Made by a program: the position numbers and the translations under genes
Source: Candidatus Terraquivivens yellowstonensis
GTDB taxonomy: Archaea; Thermoproteota; Nitrososphaeria_A; Caldarchaeales; Wolframiiraptoraceae
Assembly (NCBI GenBank): GCA_023539445.1
Contig: JAKCEW010000001.1
Location: 75,484 to 139,483 of the forward strand
DNA length: 64,000 bases
Direction of reading: 5' to 3'
Notes under the pieces: model-generated
Told to the model about the DNA's origin: nothing
Database searches by the model: none
Seen by the model: the letters and a program-made list of their open reading frames with translations, nothing else
Shown: piece by piece, positions 3,492 to 59,205 of the stretch
Layout of the letters: every line of letters begins with the position of its first letter
Position numbering within the stretch: position 1 is the stretch's first letter

Positions 3492-4559
3492 ATGAGCATC
3501 CTGCTAAGCCTTGAGATGATGGCGAAGTATCCCTTCACGAAGGCTGCCAAGGATTATGTTTCATCTCTTCATATAGACATAGAAAGTCTAGGAAATCCTG
3601 AATTCGCCCGCGTTTATGAAAGGGCGAAATTTAGAGTCGAAGAAGCGTTAGAAAGAGGTGGTAGGTCATATGAGGTCGGTGACGCAAGGGCTCTTATGGA
3701 TAGAGATTTAGAAGTTGAGCTTTTGTCGTTCCCGTTGGCCCTGTTCATGATTGCAGCTCTTGATGATGATTTCGCATCAAGAAGGTTTGGACTTGCTGAG
3801 GCCATCAGGGCCGAAACGCTCATCGCGAAGGAACGATTAGAGGTAGTCGAGGCTTTAGCTACAGAAGAACTGGGCTTTGACCTAAAGAGGGTAAGAAAGA
3901 AGCTTGACAGAGATTACGAGCTTGTGATACATTTTATGGATTACCTTAGAGAAGCATCTAGGTTTAACGCGAATGAGTGGAAGCTCGTCAATAGGTATTT
4001 GGAAAATGGTTATGTCTACATAACCCAGAGAGAGCTGGCAAGGCTGATGAGGAGCTCGATCGAGCGATACATAATAACAAGGGTAAAAACGATCGGTAGC
4101 GTTAGACCGCCAGATTACATGCGAGACTTCATCAAGGAGCAGAAGGATAAACTACTTGCGAGAAAATATAAGATAGAGGCGCTCGCCTCCGGTCTATCAC
4201 CAGATAGTTGGCCGCCATGCATGAAAGCACTTCACCAAAACCTCACTAAGGGGGAGAGCTTATCCCATTTTGCAAACTTTGCACTCGCATCATTTCTACT
4301 TAATATTGGTATGAGTGTGGATGACATCGTAAGCATCTATGCTAACAGGAGCGACTTTGACGAAAAGATTACGAGATACCAGATTGAACATATAGCAGGC
4401 ATGAGGGGTAGTAGGACGAAGTACACGTCACCCTCATGTAGCACAATGCAAACGCACGGTTTATGTATAGAACAGGGCAGATTTTGCGGTGGAATAAAAA
4501 ACCCGCTCTCCTACATCAAAAGATTCGGGCGACTCAAACCTAAAGTTACCAACAGCTAA
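3492..4559 (+). CDS. priL: DNA primase large subunit PriL
   Basis: 355 aa. C-terminal Fe-S domain with spaced Cys residues (CMKALHQN...SCSTMQTHGLC...FCGG); the length is typical of archaeal PriL. Confidence 0.7.
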   Translation: MSILLSLEMMAKYPFTKAAKDYVSSLHIDIESLGNPEFARVYERAKFRVEEALERGGRSYEVGDARALMDRDLEVELLSFPLALFMIAALDDDFASRRFGLAEAIRAETLIAKERLEVVEALATEELGFDLKRVRKKLDRDYELVIHFMDYLREASRFNANEWKLVNRYLENGYVYITQRELARLMRSSIERYIITRVKTIGSVRPPDYMRDFIKEQKDKLLARKYKIEALASGLSPDSWPPCMKALHQNLTKGESLSHFANFALASFLLNIGMSVDDIVSIYANRSDFDEKITRYQIEHIAGMRGSRTKYTSPSCSTMQTHGLCIEQGRFCGGIKNPLSYIKRFGRLKPKVTNS

Positions 4560-21758: not shown

Positions 21759-23979
21759 ATGCCCAGAGTGAAGAAGATCAGTGAAGTCGTTGACATTCTG
21801 AAAAATAAAGATAGTATAAGGAACGTCGGCATCATAGCCCATACCTAAGGATGCTTTAATCCTTAGGGGGTAAGTAGATCACGGAAAGACAACCACGACG
21901 GATAGCCTTCTAGCGGCAGCGGGATTGCTTTCGCCATCTTTGGCCGGAAAAGCGTTAGCTCTGGATTATCTCGAAGAAGAACAGCAGCGCCAGATGACGA
22001 TCAAGGCAGCTAACATTAGCCTCTACTACGAAATGGACTCGAAACCTTACATAATAAACCTCATAGACACTCCTGGACACGTCGACTTTTCTGGAAGGGT
22101 CACGAGGGCTTTAAGAGCAATAGACGGCGCAGTCGTTGTGGTGGACGCAGTCGAAGGTGTCATGACTCAGACTGAGACGGTGATAAGGCAGGCGGTGCAA
22201 GAAAGGGTCAAGCCGGTCCTATACATAAACAAAATCGATAGGCTGGTTAAGGAACTGAAGCTGACCCCTGAGAGGATTCAAGAGACGTTGGGTAGGATAA
22301 TCATGGACGTCAACAGACTGATAGAGATGTACGCTGAACCAGAGTTTAGGGATAAGTGGAAGGTTAGTATGGCCGCCGGCAGCGTGGCGATAGGTAGTGC
22401 AAAAGACAGGTGGGGATTCACTTTACAACAAGCCCAGAAGAAGGGCATAAAGTTCAGCGATGTTATCAACGCGTTTGCGAAAGGCGATATAGATTGGCTC
22501 AGGGAAAACGCGCCGTTACATGAAGCGATTCTCGAGATGGTAATAAACCACCATCCGCCTCCGCACGTAGCTCAAAAGTACAGAATACCGAAAATATGGA
22601 AGGGCCCGCTAGATAGCGATGTTGGTAAGGCCATGATGGAATGCGATGAAAACGGTCCTACGGTGATGGCCGTAACGGATGTAAAGGTTGACCCGCAAGC
22701 TGGTGTAGTGGTGACGGGTAGGTTATTCAGCGGTACCGTAAGCGATGGTAATGTATTGTTGCTGGTCGGAAGGAACATCACAGAAAGGGTCCAACAAGTT
22801 GCGGTATACATGGGCCCCTCGAGGGAAATAGTCGGTAGCCTGCCAGCCGGCAACATACCTGCGCTTTTAGGTATAGAAAATGCAAGGGCAGGTGACACAC
22901 TCGCAACCGTAGATATGGTTCCATTCGAAACGTTGAAGTATGTGTCAGAACCTGTGGTTACGATATCGATAGAGCCGAAACATAGCAAGGATTTGCCGAA
23001 GCTTGTCGATTTCTTAAACAAGTTGAGCATAGAAGACCCAACACTGGTCACAACAGTAAGACCTGAGACCGGCGAGTATCTGATAAGCGGTATGGGTACT
23101 TTACATCTAGAGATAGCTTTAACATGGATAGCTAAGGCGGGTCTGGAAGTAGTTCCGAGCAAACCGATAATACTATACAGAGAATCTGTCCAGAAAGTAG
23201 GGAAGGTCTTTGAAGGCAAATCGCCGAACAAACACAACAGGATATACATTAGGGCAGAACCGCTGGAACCTGAAGTGATCGAGTTGATAAGATCGGGTGA
23301 ACTCTATGACGAAATGGATAGGAAGCAGGTGGCGAAGATATTGCGAGACCATGGATGGGATGCTGAAGAAGCTAGGAACGTTTGGTGTATCGACCCTAGG
23401 GGCAACATACTCGTTGACATGACGAAGGGAGCCCAGTATCTTCACGAATCTAAGATGATGATAATAGGCGGCTTCCAAAGGGTAGTCTCAGAAGGACCGC
23501 TTGCCGGAGAAGCCATGAGGGGGGTAAAGGCGGTTCTGGTTAACGTAGAACTACATGAAGACCCTGTACACAGAGGTTATGCCCAAATAGCGCCGGCGAC
23601 GTGGAGGAGCCTCTATGCCAGCATACTGAGCGCAGACCCTGTGTTGTTAGAACCCATACTAAAGTTGGAGGCAAAGGTATCGCCTGAATTCATGGGCGCT
23701 GTGACTAGTGTCATAAGCTCGAAAAGGGGAAAGGTTCTAGATATAAGACAAGCTGAGTACATAACGATAATACAGGGTGAAATTCCGGCCGCTGAGACCT
23801 TTGACCTGAGCGAGGTCATGAGGAGCGTTACGATGGGCAAGGCTTTCTGGGCGACCGAATTCTCTTCTTGGAAACCCGTTCCAGCGTCGATAAGGGATAA
23901 GGTCATAGCGGAGATAAGAAAGAGAAAGGGACTTCCGCCAGAAATACCGAAGATATCCGACTTTGTGGAAGAGGAATAG
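21759..23979 (+). CDS. fusA: Translation elongation factor 2 (aEF-2), interrupted by a 31-nt BHB-type intron. The mature CDS is join(21759..21842, 21874..23979).
   Basis: Exon 1 encodes MPRVKKISEVVDILKNKDSIRNVGIIAH, which matches the aEF-2 N-terminus, and then runs into a TAA. Exon 2 opens right after a TAA with VDHGKTTTTDSLLAAAG..., the remainder of the P-loop. The two pieces are in different frames, offset by 31 nt. Confidence 0.85.
21843..21873 (+). other. Putative BHB mRNA intron in the EF-2 gene (31 nt)
   Basis: Central 4-bp helix GCCC(21837-40)/GGGU(21868-71). The 3-nt bulges AUA (21841-43) and AAG (21872-74) lie on opposite strands. The inner 7-bp stem CCUAAGG/CCUUAGG closes a 10-nt loop. 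Cutting after the 2nd nt of each bulge joins CAU|GUA and gives AHVDHGKTT. Confidence 0.7.
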
Positions 23980-23988
23980 ACGCATAAT

Positions 23989-24636
23989 TTATCCTCTTCG
24001 CCCCAATTCTTCATTTGCTATCTTGTGGGCGGCGAGAATCGGCGACGGTATTTGGCCATTCTTTGTCAACCCCTTAACGATTTCTATGGCGGTGTTTAAG
24101 GATATTTTATGTCCAACGCTAACGTACACGTTCTTGAATACTTCTTCACCAACAACGTCGCCATTCAACATCACGACCCTTCTGCCACTCACTCTTTTAA
24201 CTTGACCACAAAGGAGTTTTTTCGCCACACCTATCGTTGGCTTATCCAGCACGATGCCGATGTAACATGCGATGCCAAACTTTCTGGGATGGAGTCTTCC
24301 GTTACCGTCGACGAGAAGCACATCAAAATCGCTCTTTAAACCTTTGATGGCATTAAGCATGGGTGGCGCCTCACGAAGGAAGAGAAGGCCTGGAACGTAA
24401 ACATGTCGAACAATGCATTTATGCTTGCTAACTTCAACTATGCGGCCGTCTTTGTCCTGTATGACGGCAACTGCGACGGCATTTTGGTTGGAATAAGCCA
24501 CGTCAACCCCGCAGAAGAGCTCGTAACTCTCCAAGACGTCATGCTCGGAGACCATGCTTGCCATCTCCAACTGAAGCTTGATCGCCTCATCGTACGTGAG
24601 CGACTCAAGATTCAAAAGGTGCGCCATTTCCCTCAT
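23989..24636 (-). CDS. nfi: Endonuclease V (deoxyinosine 3' endonuclease)
   Basis: GVDVAY...YVPGLLFLRE...GNGRLHPRKFGIACYIG...IGVAKK are the EndoV blocks. Confidence 0.85.
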   Translation of the reverse strand: MREMAHLLNLESLTYDEAIKLQLEMASMVSEHDVLESYELFCGVDVAYSNQNAVAVAVIQDKDGRIVEVSKHKCIVRHVYVPGLLFLREAPPMLNAIKGLKSDFDVLLVDGNGRLHPRKFGIACYIGIVLDKPTIGVAKKLLCGQVKRVSGRRVVMLNGDVVGEEVFKNVYVSVGHKISLNTAIEIVKGLTKNGQIPSPILAAHKIANEELGRRG

Positions 24637-43916: not shown

Positions 43917-45212
43917 ATGTCTACCAAACCACACCTAAACTTGGTAGTCATAGGGCATGTGGACCATGGAAAGTCAACAACGATGGGTCATCTACTGTAT
44001 AAACTGGGCGCCGTTGACGAGAGAACAATTCAGATGTACGAGGAAGAGGCGAAAAAACTTAGAAAGGAGACGTTTAAGTATGCATGGATACTCGACAGGG
44101 TTAAAGAAGAGCGAGAAAGGGGGCTAACAATAGACCTTGCGTTCCAGAAATTCGAGACCAAAAAATACTATTTCACACTGATTGACGCTCCCGGCCACAG
44201 GGACTTCGTGAAAAACATGATAACCGGAGCAAGCCAAGCGGATGCTGCAATTTTGGTAGTTTCTGCAAAGAAGGGCGAATATGAGGTAGGAATAGCGCCC
44301 GGTGGACAGACAAGGGAACATGCCTTCCTAGCATTCATGCTGGGCATAAGGCAACTGGTTGTCGCAATCAACAAGATGGACGATAGCACGGTTAACTGGT
44401 CCCAAGAAAGATACAATGAAGTAAAACAAGGTGTGCAGGACCTGTTAAAGCGTGTCGGCTACGACGTCTCAAAGATACACTTCGTACCTATCTCTGGATG
44501 GTTGGGCGATAACCTCGTAGAAAGAAGCAAAAACCTTCCGTGGTACAACGGGCCAACCTTAATAGAGGCCTTGGACACGTTCCAAGAGCCACCGAAACCA
44601 ATTGACAAGCCTTTGAGGATACCGATACAGGCAGTTTACTCCATTAAGGGTGTAGGAACAGTGCCTGTAGGAAGGGTTGAAACTGGTGTTCTGAAACCTG
44701 GTGATACCGTTGTTATCATGCCGCCTAACATAAAGGCTGAAGTCAAGAGTATAGAGATGCACCACCAGCCTTTGCAACAGGCAATACCTGGTGACAACAT
44801 AGGCTTTAACCTGAAGGGTGTAGAAAGATCCCAGCTTGCAAGGGGGATGGTTGTCAGCCATCCGGACAATCCGTGTAGCGTAGCGAAGGAATTCATTGGC
44901 CAGATAGTGGTGATATACCACCCGACGGCTATAGCAGTTGGCTATACGCCAGTCATGCACATACATACTGCACAAGTAGCTGTAAAGTTCGTTGAACTGA
45001 TAGCAAAGATAGACCCAAGGACCGGACAGGTTGTAGAGAAGAACCCGCAATTCCTCAAGACGGGAGATATAGCGCTCGTGAGGCTTGCACCGTTACAACC
45101 GACGGCGCTCGAACCGTACTCCCAGTTCCCCGAGTTAGGCAGGTTTGCAATCAGAGATAGTGGTATGACAATAGCTGCTGGCATAGTCAAGGAGATAACG
45201 CAGAAGGCTTAG
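43917..45212 (+). CDS. tuf: Translation elongation factor 1-alpha (aEF-1A)
   Basis: GHVDHGKST, DAPGHRDF and NKMD G-motifs; 431 aa. Confidence 0.95.
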   Translation: MSTKPHLNLVVIGHVDHGKSTTMGHLLYKLGAVDERTIQMYEEEAKKLRKETFKYAWILDRVKEERERGLTIDLAFQKFETKKYYFTLIDAPGHRDFVKNMITGASQADAAILVVSAKKGEYEVGIAPGGQTREHAFLAFMLGIRQLVVAINKMDDSTVNWSQERYNEVKQGVQDLLKRVGYDVSKIHFVPISGWLGDNLVERSKNLPWYNGPTLIEALDTFQEPPKPIDKPLRIPIQAVYSIKGVGTVPVGRVETGVLKPGDTVVIMPPNIKAEVKSIEMHHQPLQQAIPGDNIGFNLKGVERSQLARGMVVSHPDNPCSVAKEFIGQIVVIYHPTAIAVGYTPVMHIHTAQVAVKFVELIAKIDPRTGQVVEKNPQFLKTGDIALVRLAPLQPTALEPYSQFPELGRFAIRDSGMTIAAGIVKEITQKA

Positions 45213-57437: not shown

Positions 57438-57468
57438 TATACATCAACCATTTGCATTTTATTACCCT

Positions 57469-59037
57469 CTAACCGAGGCTCCGTCGGAGCTTAGCGGCCG
57501 TAACCAGCGCTTGTTTTGCCTCGTCCATTTTACCCTCTGAGAATAAAATTATGAAATCGTTCGTGTAGTTCTCGTGCCTTTTTGCAACAGAGCTGCTTGG
57601 GCCTATCTTTAACCCCATAACCTCCTCTGCTACTTTAACGTCCTCAATCAGCAACGGAAGTGCAAACTTTTTGAACTCTTTATCAAAAGCCTCGCTCTCG
57701 CGAATGACCTCCAAATTTCTCCATGAGAAAAATTCTGCTGCAGCCCTCAAGTCTTCCTTTATGTTCCTATACGCATCCAAGAGCGCACATTGTTCCTCTT
57801 CTTTTAAAGTTCTAAAAACCCTTAAACCTATGAATTCAGGCGGCAGGCCCAAGGAGTAAAAGGAGGCCGTAAATGGTATAGCCCTTGGTAGAATTACGTC
57901 ACCTACCATCCTATTGTAGCCGAATAAGCCGATGTGCAACCTTCTGGCCCTCCTTGCTGGTACAAGCCTTGAGATATTTTCGATGACCTTCGCGGCATGT
58001 AGCAAAAACTCATAGTATGCATCTTTAAACTTAGATGCAATGGATAGGAGCATTTGCTCTATTTGCGAAAAATCTTCAGCCTCGCCTATTGGTAGGTTTC
58101 TGTTCAGATACTCTACAACAGCCTTCGAATCGCTTTCAGGGTAGTCGTACTTGAGTCCGCATTGTATCGTAATCGTGCTCACACCTTTATACTCTCTAAC
58201 AAAGTTTTCTAGATTACTCGGCGAGAGATGGCCCCTGAAGGGCAAACTACCAACGCCTATTATAGGATGTATATCCACACCTTCTTTTTTGATGAGTGCT
58301 CTGATTTTAGAGAGTGCGATTTTTACTAGAATTACCGCTGGCACGAGTCCATAATGGAGGGCGGGGTCAGACCTAGCGAGAAATACGCGCAGATATTTTG
58401 GGGAAGTTGCCTCCAAGAGTTTAAAAAGCAAGCTGTCCAAGCTTACCAAGCTCGACCATTCTTCGAACAAGGGTATCACGTTTATGGATTTTGGCTGAAT
58501 TTCTCCTACTAGTTCTAGCAGTGTAACGTCTGGAAAGTCGATCTTTACTTTTTCTATATTGACCACGGCCTCAGAATATGTCCTCAAAACCCTTACGACA
58601 TCCTTATGGCTACTGGTAAAAGGTAGTATAACCTCAAAGACAGGCGCGTATTCTCCGTTTCCGTAAAATTGTTTGGCCACGTCAAAATGTTTGGGTATTG
58701 CCTGAAGGGTTTCCAAGAATACTTTTTTCTCCACCTTTTCTAGCATCGGGTTTGGAACCCTGTACGTGAGGAATATGTCTCTACCGAGAATTTTCTCTTT
58801 AAAGAAGTCAGGATAGCTTGTCAAAAGTTTCCTGACGACATGCGGATCTATGTCTTTCCCCTCAGAATCCCACATAACCTCCTGACAACCTAGTTTGCTA
58901 TAGGCGTAGTACGCTTCGTAGACTTCCTTTTCACCTTCTATTACGTCTGAGTCGCACCAAGGAGGAATGGATGCGTTGTCGGGATGTTGTGTTGACATGG
59001 TTTTTGGTATTAACCTTTGCTCGCTCAAGCCGTCCAC
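57469..59037 (-). CDS. ppcA: Archaeal-type phosphoenolpyruvate carboxylase (PepcA)
   Basis: IPKTMSTQHPDN hallmark; about 520 aa, collinear with PepcA of Sulfolobus. Confidence 0.85.
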   Translation of the reverse strand: MDGLSEQRLIPKTMSTQHPDNASIPPWCDSDVIEGEKEVYEAYYAYSKLGCQEVMWDSEGKDIDPHVVRKLLTSYPDFFKEKILGRDIFLTYRVPNPMLEKVEKKVFLETLQAIPKHFDVAKQFYGNGEYAPVFEVILPFTSSHKDVVRVLRTYSEAVVNIEKVKIDFPDVTLLELVGEIQPKSINVIPLFEEWSSLVSLDSLLFKLLEATSPKYLRVFLARSDPALHYGLVPAVILVKIALSKIRALIKKEGVDIHPIIGVGSLPFRGHLSPSNLENFVREYKGVSTITIQCGLKYDYPESDSKAVVEYLNRNLPIGEAEDFSQIEQMLLSIASKFKDAYYEFLLHAAKVIENISRLVPARRARRLHIGLFGYNRMVGDVILPRAIPFTASFYSLGLPPEFIGLRVFRTLKEEEQCALLDAYRNIKEDLRAAAEFFSWRNLEVIRESEAFDKEFKKFALPLLIEDVKVAEEVMGLKIGPSSSVAKRHENYTNDFIILFSEGKMDEAKQALVTAAKLRRSLG

Positions 59038-59095: not shown

Positions 59096-59205
59096 TGGCG
59101 GGCCCGGTGGGATTCGAACCCACGACCTATGGGTTACTCCGTTTAAACAAACCTAAGAGCCCACCGCTTTAGGCGGAACCCCCTACCTGGCTGAGCTACG
59201 GGCCC
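59096..59205 (-). tRNA. tRNA-Lys (anticodon CTT) with two introns, CCA encoded
   Basis: The 110-nt pre-tRNA has acceptor GGGCCCG/CGGGCCC and T-arm GTGGG-TTCGAAT-CCCAC. A canonical 19-nt intron follows position 37 (fwd 59135-59153) in a perfect BHB. A second 14-nt intron sits in the D-arm at 22/23 (fwd 59169-59182); removing it gives the canonical D-arm GCTC-AGCCAGGTA-GAGC. Confidence 0.8.

Follow-up and report, generated by a model that had tools for sequence, protein, structure and literature searches.

The gene for archaeal elongation factor 2 (aEF-2, EF-2 in the following) was analysed in a 64-kb stretch of contig JAKCEW010000001.1 from the hot-spring archaeon Candidatus Terraquivivens (Caldarchaeales), which is referred to at its full length as the window. 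The coding sequence is broken inside the GTPase P-loop by 31 nt that have the features of a bulge-helix-bulge (BHB) intron. An ATG start codon at 21759 on the forward strand opens exon 1 (21759-21842; MPRVKKISEVVDILKNKDSIRNVGIIAH), the 28 codons of which end within the first half of the P-loop, ...NVGIIAH, with the CAT codon of the histidine at 21840-21842. A single codon, ACC, follows before a TAA at 21846-21848, and the first open reading frame (ORF) is accordingly 29 amino acids (aa) long. Exon 2 (21874-23979, forward strand) comprises 701 codons and the stop codon at 23977-23979. It begins VDHGKTTTT in a frame that differs from that of exon 1 and opens at GTA 21874, directly 3' of a TAA at 21871-21873. 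The intervening 31 nt at 21843-21873 read ACCTAAGGATGCTTTAATCCTTAGGGGGTAA and hold stop codons in each of the three frames, so that an unspliced transcript would yield the 29-aa peptide only. An earlier note on this DNA had described 28 codons ending in a TAA and the rest of the protein resuming 31 nt on, in another frame, after a second TAA. The codon count and the point of resumption agree with the coordinates above, but the first TAA does not follow the histidine directly, as ACC intervenes.

Excision of 21843-21873 resulted in an uninterrupted protein of 729 aa. In the predicted spliced RNA ...GCCCAU is joined to GUAGAUCAC, and the protein predicted across the junction reads NVGIIAHVDHGK. 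When compared with the NCBIfam equivalog for aEF-2, TIGR00490 (curated cut-off 738.45 bits), this product scored 861.7 bits over profile positions 2-720 of 720. It was 82-86% identical to the 729-aa EF-2 of metagenome-assembled genomes (MAGs) of Caldarchaeales ('Aigarchaeota'), and its residues 1-28 gave a 100% tblastn match at 21759-21842. The longest unspliced ORF, 684 aa from a TTG at 21925, covers TIGR00490 positions 45-720 and misses the P-loop. Gene callers give an N-terminally shortened EF-2 of 679-684 aa for the window gene (P0001), and shortened calls (679-695 aa vs ~729) were found in public databases for several other lineages too, whose DNA proved to hold insertions at this AH|VD junction as well.

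Predicted fold and cut sites

A canonical BHB consists of two 3-nt bulges on opposite strands with a 4-bp helix between them (PMC6379350). A strict BHB scanner, in which the cut is placed after the second base of each bulge, called exactly 21843-21873 in EF-2 as a BHB-type intron (ACCUAAGGAUGCUUUAAUCCUUAGGGGGUAA, forward strand), giving CAU|GUA and an in-frame AHVDHGKT. The central helix, H, pairs GCCC at 21837-21840, that is the Ala codon and the first base of the His codon in exon 1, with GGGU at 21868-21871 within the intron, through three C-G pairs and one G-U pair. It is flanked by a 5' bulge AUA (21841-21843) and a 3' bulge AAG (21872-21874), for which cleavage is predicted at 21842|21843 and 21873|21874. 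The inner hairpin spans 21844-21867, with a 9-bp stem (CCTAAGGAT/ATCCTTAGG; 21844-52 with 21859-67) and a 6-nt loop at 21853-58. On the exon side, UA at 21835-21836 pairs with UA at 21875-21876 in a weak outer helix of 2 bp.

Folding of 21822-21890 with RNAfold returned this helix-bulge-helix-bulge-helix as the minimum free energy (MFE) structure at -21.5 kcal/mol (z = -3.46), and one of 200 shuffled sequences was as stable. H, the first bulge and the inner stem were still the MFE structure at 60, 70 and 80 °C; a bulged A followed by 3 more bp extended the outer helix in the fold at 37 °C only. A protein-scored beam search over BHB-compatible excisions gave 21843-21873 as the sole solution that restores the N-terminus. 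Scanner and fold thereby bear out the 3-nt bulges AUA and AAG around GCCC/GGGU described in the earlier note, and the scanner junction agrees with its proposal that canonical cuts join CAU to GUA and regenerate AHVDHGKTT in frame. The stem was there given as 7 bp with a 10-nt loop and in fact extends to 9 bp with a 6-nt loop. The motif had also been called textbook, which applies to the core of H, bulge and inner stem but not to the weak outer helix; the EF-2 motif may function as an HBh' form that is in part relaxed.

The P-loop junction in related genomes

The closest genomes were those of Candidatus Terraquivivens, the EF-2 on contig Ga0078972_1000023 being 100% identical. A genome scan located the insertion in four of five Terraquivivens species-level genomes and in two other lineages, whereas some 70 further members of the Caldarchaeales, Bathyarchaeia and Sulfolobales in the genome collection lacked it at AH|VD. 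Metagenomes were scanned with the pattern ...IAH-(25-55 nt)-VDHGKT..., which required ATA-GCN-CAY and hence gives a biased set. Insertions of 30-46 nt at the P-loop site were observed in 33 loci in addition to the window. They comprise 21 distinct sequences, the hairpins of which fall into at least 7 unrelated types, and the EF-2 of their hosts is 58-100% identical to the window protein. The cut defined by geometry coincided with the junction defined by the protein in all 21 of the 21 distinct sequences; in locus L125 the insertion is displaced by 1 nt. The look at relatives that the earlier note had proposed thus turned up same-junction insertions well beyond this genome, and the case it had presented as new and striking stands as an EF-2 intron but not as one unique to its host.

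Four loci from the metagenome scan (L089, L110, L112 and L153) were set aside as fungal-looking, with spliceosomal introns of the form GTATGT...AG and not BHB introns. In these GTPase genes the introns sit nearly at that junction, CATG|...|TC, and split the Val codon of AH|VDHGKT after its first base, a phase shared with L125, probably by coincidence.

The recurrence of the insertion bears on the possibility that it is a sequencing or assembly artefact and that the 31 nt are absent from the real genome. The source is metagenome-assembled, and the EF-2 genes of L157 and L158 show 1-nt frameshifts typical of assembly errors. Independent assemblies produced by different projects (L006, L007, L009, L010, L087, L088, L101, L113 and L117) nevertheless share the insertion and its location, natural variation being confined to the loop, and one of them carries a 33-nt variant. 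As the earlier note had also argued, an artefact would not give a structured hairpin, here one that covaries with the exon, and we regard the chance of this explanation as close to negligible.

Covariation was evaluated on 15 distinct relatives, the sequences of which were anchored on the protein-defined junction as a mini-BHB of fixed length, resulting in a gap-free alignment. In the canonical structure 79.5% of cells pair vs 64.5% in shuffles, and the covariation score was 0.441 vs 0.157 ± 0.028; neither observed value was reached in any of 500 shuffles. Slid registers gave 28-49% pairing. The shuffle control ignores relatedness, the slid-register control retains it, and the families have unrelated hairpins. 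Within H, 91.7% of cells were paired. Between the third position of the exonic Ala codon and its intron partner, 8 sequences have C-G and 7 have G-C, and compensatory double changes were observed at 6 of 6 inner-stem pairs.

Within the genus, five distinct Terraquivivens introns share their first 9 and last 15 nt unchanged (24 invariant positions), and in their loop of 7-9 nt, 2-6 of 7 positions differ. The Terraquivivens EF-2 genes differ at 27-56% of their synonymous sites (proportion of synonymous differences, pS, 0.27-0.56), and the chance of 24 neutral sites remaining unchanged was 3e-9 to 5e-4 per pair. The ratio of nonsynonymous to synonymous substitution (dN/dS) in the spliced frame was 0.012-0.028 across both exons, at dS 0.34-1.03, from which the spliced frame is judged to be under strong purifying selection.

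These values were set against the possibility that the gene is a decaying pseudogene, or that EF-2 is split into two polypeptides, with another copy or the two fragments supplying the function. Such an arrangement would fit the annotation, in which gene callers report the shortened product only, and inspection of this genome for a second copy was confined to 64 kb. Against decay, nevertheless, stand the low dN/dS of the two exons, where dS reaches 1.0, and the fact that five diverged Terraquivivens assemblies have kept the insertion and show no change in its stems. No second EF-2 was found in the window, and the genome scan recovered one EF-2 locus per Terraquivivens genome. A split gene is further contradicted by the lack of a start before VDHGKT; in frame, translation could begin no earlier than at the TTG of 21925, and the ORF from there is without a P-loop. 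Pseudogene and split gene alike are therefore considered highly improbable.

Further insertion sites in EF-2

When 113 EF-2 loci and two sampled fragment genes were reconstructed in this way, BHB-compatible insertions appeared at five further sites, which are numbered by the window protein. Together with the P-loop, six sites were found, all within conserved G-domain motifs, and the window gene has the P-loop intron alone. The site IRN|IG, inside the Asn21 codon and ~20 nt upstream of the P-loop codons, is occupied in 17 loci, mostly Bathyarchaeia (14 sequences; L002/L054, L003-L005, L057-L059, L063, L066, L072, L080, L081, L103, L104, L134 and L150). Its helix was 100% paired, the exon/intron strands being UCCG/CGGA, UUCG/CGAA and UGCG/CGCG, with a covariation score of 0.477 vs 0.171 in shuffles. 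Two further sites are shared by L095, L128 and L133, namely RQ|MT at Gln68|Met69 (helix CGUC/GACG, CGAC/GUUG) and DTP|GH at Pro95|Gly96, or inside the Thr94 codon in L133 (ACGC/GCGU, CGAC/GUCG). In these three loci, insertions at AH|VD, RQ|MT and DTP|GH interrupt the G1, G2 and G3 motifs, and L133 carries one more at IRN|IG, the upstream insertion that was resolved by eye. Within the first 100 codons some genes hold two insertions (L002-like), and in uncultured lineages three (L095, L128) or four (L133).

The fifth site, GH|VDF at His97|Val98, was found in L155, an Asgard Jordarchaeaceae MAG (NCBI product name Candidatus Jordarchaeaceae), as a strict BHB with helix GGCC/GGCU and a spliced ORF of 733 aa. 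The insertion, represented by L155/L156, is 31 nt long, at 3792-3822 (Logan SRR28530378, SRR28530382). Its context GGC CAU|GUG GAU with intron end GGCUAA resembles that of the P-loop site, GCC CAU|GUA GAU with GGGUAA, a likeness that hints at site-to-site spread. The sixth, EEV|MVQ, lies inside the Met125 codon in DAVEEV|MVQTETV of L159 (JGI 3300013128), where a BHB-like insertion of 31 nt at 3874-3904 forms three of four H pairs and the spliced ORF measures 728 aa; the N-terminal fragment P0164 represents 22 sequences on at least 8 contigs.

The range of sites is relevant to translational bypassing or programmed frameshifting, by which the ribosome would pass the 31 nt on an unprocessed RNA; phage T4 gene 60 and the mitochondrial 'byp' elements are examples. 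A stop two codons past the break and a stable hairpin just after the take-off region make the locus superficially similar to the gene 60 gap. Bypassing, however, needs a landing codon that matches the take-off codon. At this locus the ribosome would take off from CAU, whereas GUA is preceded by UAA and the landing site offers neither CAU nor CAC. A simple frameshift would not read through either, given the stops in all three frames. Recoding moreover leaves unexplained the exon-intron helix covariation and the fixed 3-nt bulges, and it does not account for the recurrence of this geometry at five more EF-2 sites where the codons differ. It is accordingly held to be exceedingly improbable.

Presence of the intron is patchy even among close relatives. 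The window EF-2 is 94.6% identical to that of the intron-less T. tikiterensis (L008) and 94.4% identical to that of the intron-bearing T. ruidianensis (L010). In L001 and L051, the proteins of which are 96.9% identical, the same H (GCGC/GCGU) and the same 3' end accompany wholly different hairpins. Together these observations indicate loss, gain or hairpin replacement on short timescales, and comparable intron gain and loss has been described for cbf5 (PMC2738675). They would also be in line with a small palindromic mobile element, tolerated through BHB mimicry, that spreads selfishly between conserved GTPase motifs. The patchy distribution, the unrelated hairpins at one junction in L001 and L051, the position of all six sites in the most conserved G-domain motifs and the common sequence context of the P-loop and DTPGH|VDF sites all favor such an element. 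No integrase, target-site duplication or repeated 31-mer copies were seen, and an Rfam scan of the window returned tRNAs only. The proposal concerns the origin of the insertion and is compatible with BHB splicing, hence not a true alternative mechanism; we consider it plausible but less likely than not. With slightly more confidence than doubt, aEF-2 may be viewed as a hot spot at which BHB introns accumulate, in Thermoproteota at large as well as in at least one lineage of Asgard archaea, with introns that behave in a mobile-like manner and may move between CAU|GUNGAU sites. Protein-coding BHB introns would in that case be widespread and overlooked.

Of four short EF-2 fragments sampled from long contigs as possible intron cases, two, L157 (~3800-3830) and L158 (~3840-3860, GCA_001316005.1), were rejected as plain 1-nt frameshifts, from which it follows that not every split EF-2 call is an intron. 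The EF-2 of L158 is in four pieces and its assembly is suggested to be of low quality. N-terminal EF-2 fragments of 108-231 aa were in addition noted on contigs of 43-894 kb from diverse archaea (P0132, P0143, P0171, P0269, P0285, P0292, P0303, P0304 and P0307) and may mark further interruption sites deeper in the gene. In P0069 (672 aa, JGI), residues ~470-510, PIVALLMASLRSKVSAAGISP..., resemble an antisense translation of the EF-2 3' region, comparable to the window minus-strand ORF 23613-24014, which suggests an inverted or chimeric assembly.

Splicing model, precedents and other features of the window

On the evidence of fold, covariation and reading frame, we consider it very likely that 21843-21873 is a BHB intron in the pre-mRNA of an essential, apparently single-copy aEF-2 of Candidatus Terraquivivens, excised by the tRNA-splicing endonuclease (EndA) and a ligase. 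In the transcript, GCCC at the end of exon 1 would find its partner in GGGU, close to the intron's 3' end. The resulting 4-bp helix would have a 3-nt bulge on either side, one per strand, and the 9-bp hairpin would close it. EndA would cut past the second base of each bulge and an RtcB-type ligase would join CAU to GUA, giving the contiguous P-loop AHVDHGKT and the 729-aa EF-2. The intron would be released, probably as a circle. The action of EndA and ligase on the EF-2 mRNA, and any regulatory consequence, are inferred.

A number of points weigh against BHB splicing of this gene. The BHB shape alone proves nothing, because strict matches are as common in the window (750 on both strands) as in dinucleotide shuffles (766 ± 27). 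The outer helix comprises only 2 bp, is lost at 60 °C and above, i.e. at growth-like temperatures, and is poorly conserved, being paired in 51% of cells across relatives. In a database of 5.8 billion proteins, which includes assemblies of public sequencing runs, junction-spanning peptides of this species had no match above 92% identity and those of the two-intron lineage none above 84%, and no retrieved protein matched the spliced N-terminus above 95%. No transcript or intron-less nucleotide-identical sequence was found, splicing itself being inferred. The genome was inspected over 64 kb. Archaeal translation can begin on nascent RNA, and splicing would have to outpace the ribosomes 84 nt into the ORF.

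As for the frequency of the shape, strict BHBs occurred at a rate of ~6e-5 per pair of position and length, and at ~7e-7 when the inner stem had to measure 9 bp or more. What counts is that both position and length are set independently by the protein alignment, which leaves the junction no room to slide. A search of the window for other split genes, made by fusing ORFs across BHB matches with a loose filter, returned mostly neighbouring genes merged. The best-looking of them, 57444-57474 on the minus strand, is no more than the spacer that separates a PEP-carboxylase-like ORF from a ZIP-family transporter.

Protein-coding BHB introns are known in archaea from the cbf5 pre-mRNA of Crenarchaeota, which is spliced by endonuclease and ligase (Watanabe et al. 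2002; Yokobori et al. 2009, PMC2738675). The statement in the earlier note that mRNA splicing of this type is established for cbf5 only is nearly correct, since a 2020 account (PMC7714728) lists cbf5 as the sole reported case plus one BHB intron in a Haloferax 5' untranslated region (UTR). Papers on cbf5 alone are cited in a 2025 article (PMC12397907), and an EF-2 intron goes unmentioned in PMC6143161, on aEF-2 evolution, and in PMC9246946, in which Terraquivivens was named. The 'predicted introns in other protein-coding genes' of PMC2738675 were considered and found to refer to SIRV1 and Sulfolobus rearrangements. No description of an EF-2 BHB intron was found in the searchable literature through 2025, the coverage of which is incomplete, making a prior description possible. 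EF-2 thus appears to be an undescribed host, and the window gene one instance of a broader aEF-2 set; the relatives suggest that introns of this type are frequent in the EF-2 genes of archaea.

The EF-2 and cbf5 introns are alike in being short BHB introns within the ORF of a housekeeping gene, with removal, actual or predicted, by the tRNA-splicing endonuclease and ligase. Both are gained and lost patchily in related lineages, and in both cases gene callers report a truncated or frameshifted gene. The host here is however aEF-2 and not a pseudouridine synthase, and occurs in Caldarchaeales, Bathyarchaeia, other Thermoproteota and one Asgard MAG, in contrast to Sulfolobales/Desulfurococcales for cbf5. 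At least six sites are used in EF-2, with up to four insertions per gene (L133), vs one site in cbf5. The cbf5 motif is often relaxed, whereas the H-B-h' core in the window is canonical, and cbf5 splicing has been confirmed experimentally, whereas that of EF-2 is predicted.

Other systems offer partial parallels. The BHB introns of archaeal tRNAs (Marck and Grosjean 2003; PMC6379350, PMC4090602) have identical 3-4-3 geometry and cut positions and are of similar size (11-175 nt, PMC2738675), with an example 35 kb away in the window. The EF-2 intron differs in that it lies in an mRNA, without a tRNA body to aid recognition, and in that its outer helix is coding sequence, by which synonymous codon choice is tied to the intron sequence. 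In Haloferax volcanii HVO_1309 (PMC7714728) an mRNA has likewise been shown, in vivo and in vitro, to be a substrate of the splicing endonuclease, but that single euryarchaeal case concerns the 5' UTR and leaves the reading frame intact. HAC1/XBP1 splicing by Ire1 and RtcB or Trl1 is also non-spliceosomal, with an endonuclease cutting paired stem-loop sites before a tRNA ligase acts, and removes a small ORF intron with a change in the reading frame of the product. Ire1 and its recognition motif are different, though, and HAC1/XBP1 splicing is stress-regulated, of which the EF-2 data give no sign.

If BHB splicing of EF-2 holds true, a universal, essential and highly expressed GTPase is a new host, which would mean that cbf5 is no curiosity; the pattern of multiple sites in multiple lineages argues for the same. 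If the gene is indeed a hot spot, EF-2 production is tied to the tRNA-splicing machinery. On the practical side, aEF-2 is widely used as a phylogenetic and completeness marker, and gene callers shorten this universal gene. The patchy introns and their hairpin turnover provide a system for intron gain, loss and possible mobility in archaea, and these dynamics bear on ideas about the origin of protein-spliced introns. Timely removal of an mRNA intron 84 nt into the ORF also poses a mechanistic problem.

The EF-2 gene is neighboured by those for uS13, a TatA-family protein and endonuclease V. A second translational GTPase, probably aEF-1alpha, was observed at 43938-44207 and downstream, with a contiguous ...IGHVDHGK... 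P-loop and no insertion; within the window the intron is consequently specific to EF-2.

A tRNA-Lys(CUU) gene with two introns is located at 59099-59205 on the minus strand (Rfam tRNA match, 47.7 bits). Its 19-nt intron at position 37/38 (59135-59153, minus strand) is canonical; GUGGG/CCCAU, the anticodon stem, serves as its outer helix and CUCU/GGAG as H. The strict scanner recovered it, in agreement with the earlier note, according to which this intron obeys the same cut rule as EF-2. The other intron, 14 nt in the D-arm (59169-59182, minus strand), is a relaxed BHB with H = AGGU/GCCU and almost without an inner helix. Relaxed motifs are cut efficiently only by (alpha-beta)2 and epsilon2 endonucleases (PMC6379350), and the D-arm intron is indirect evidence that the splicing endonuclease of the host may act outside the canonical tRNA position. 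The earlier note had further proposed that translation capacity depends on the endonuclease through EF-2. Such dependence would add little, because tRNA-Lys already needs two splicing events. With default settings ARAGORN misses the tRNA-Lys gene and with introns enabled it mis-calls a tRNA-Stop; tRNA-Lys(ctt) is reported only once both insertions are removed.

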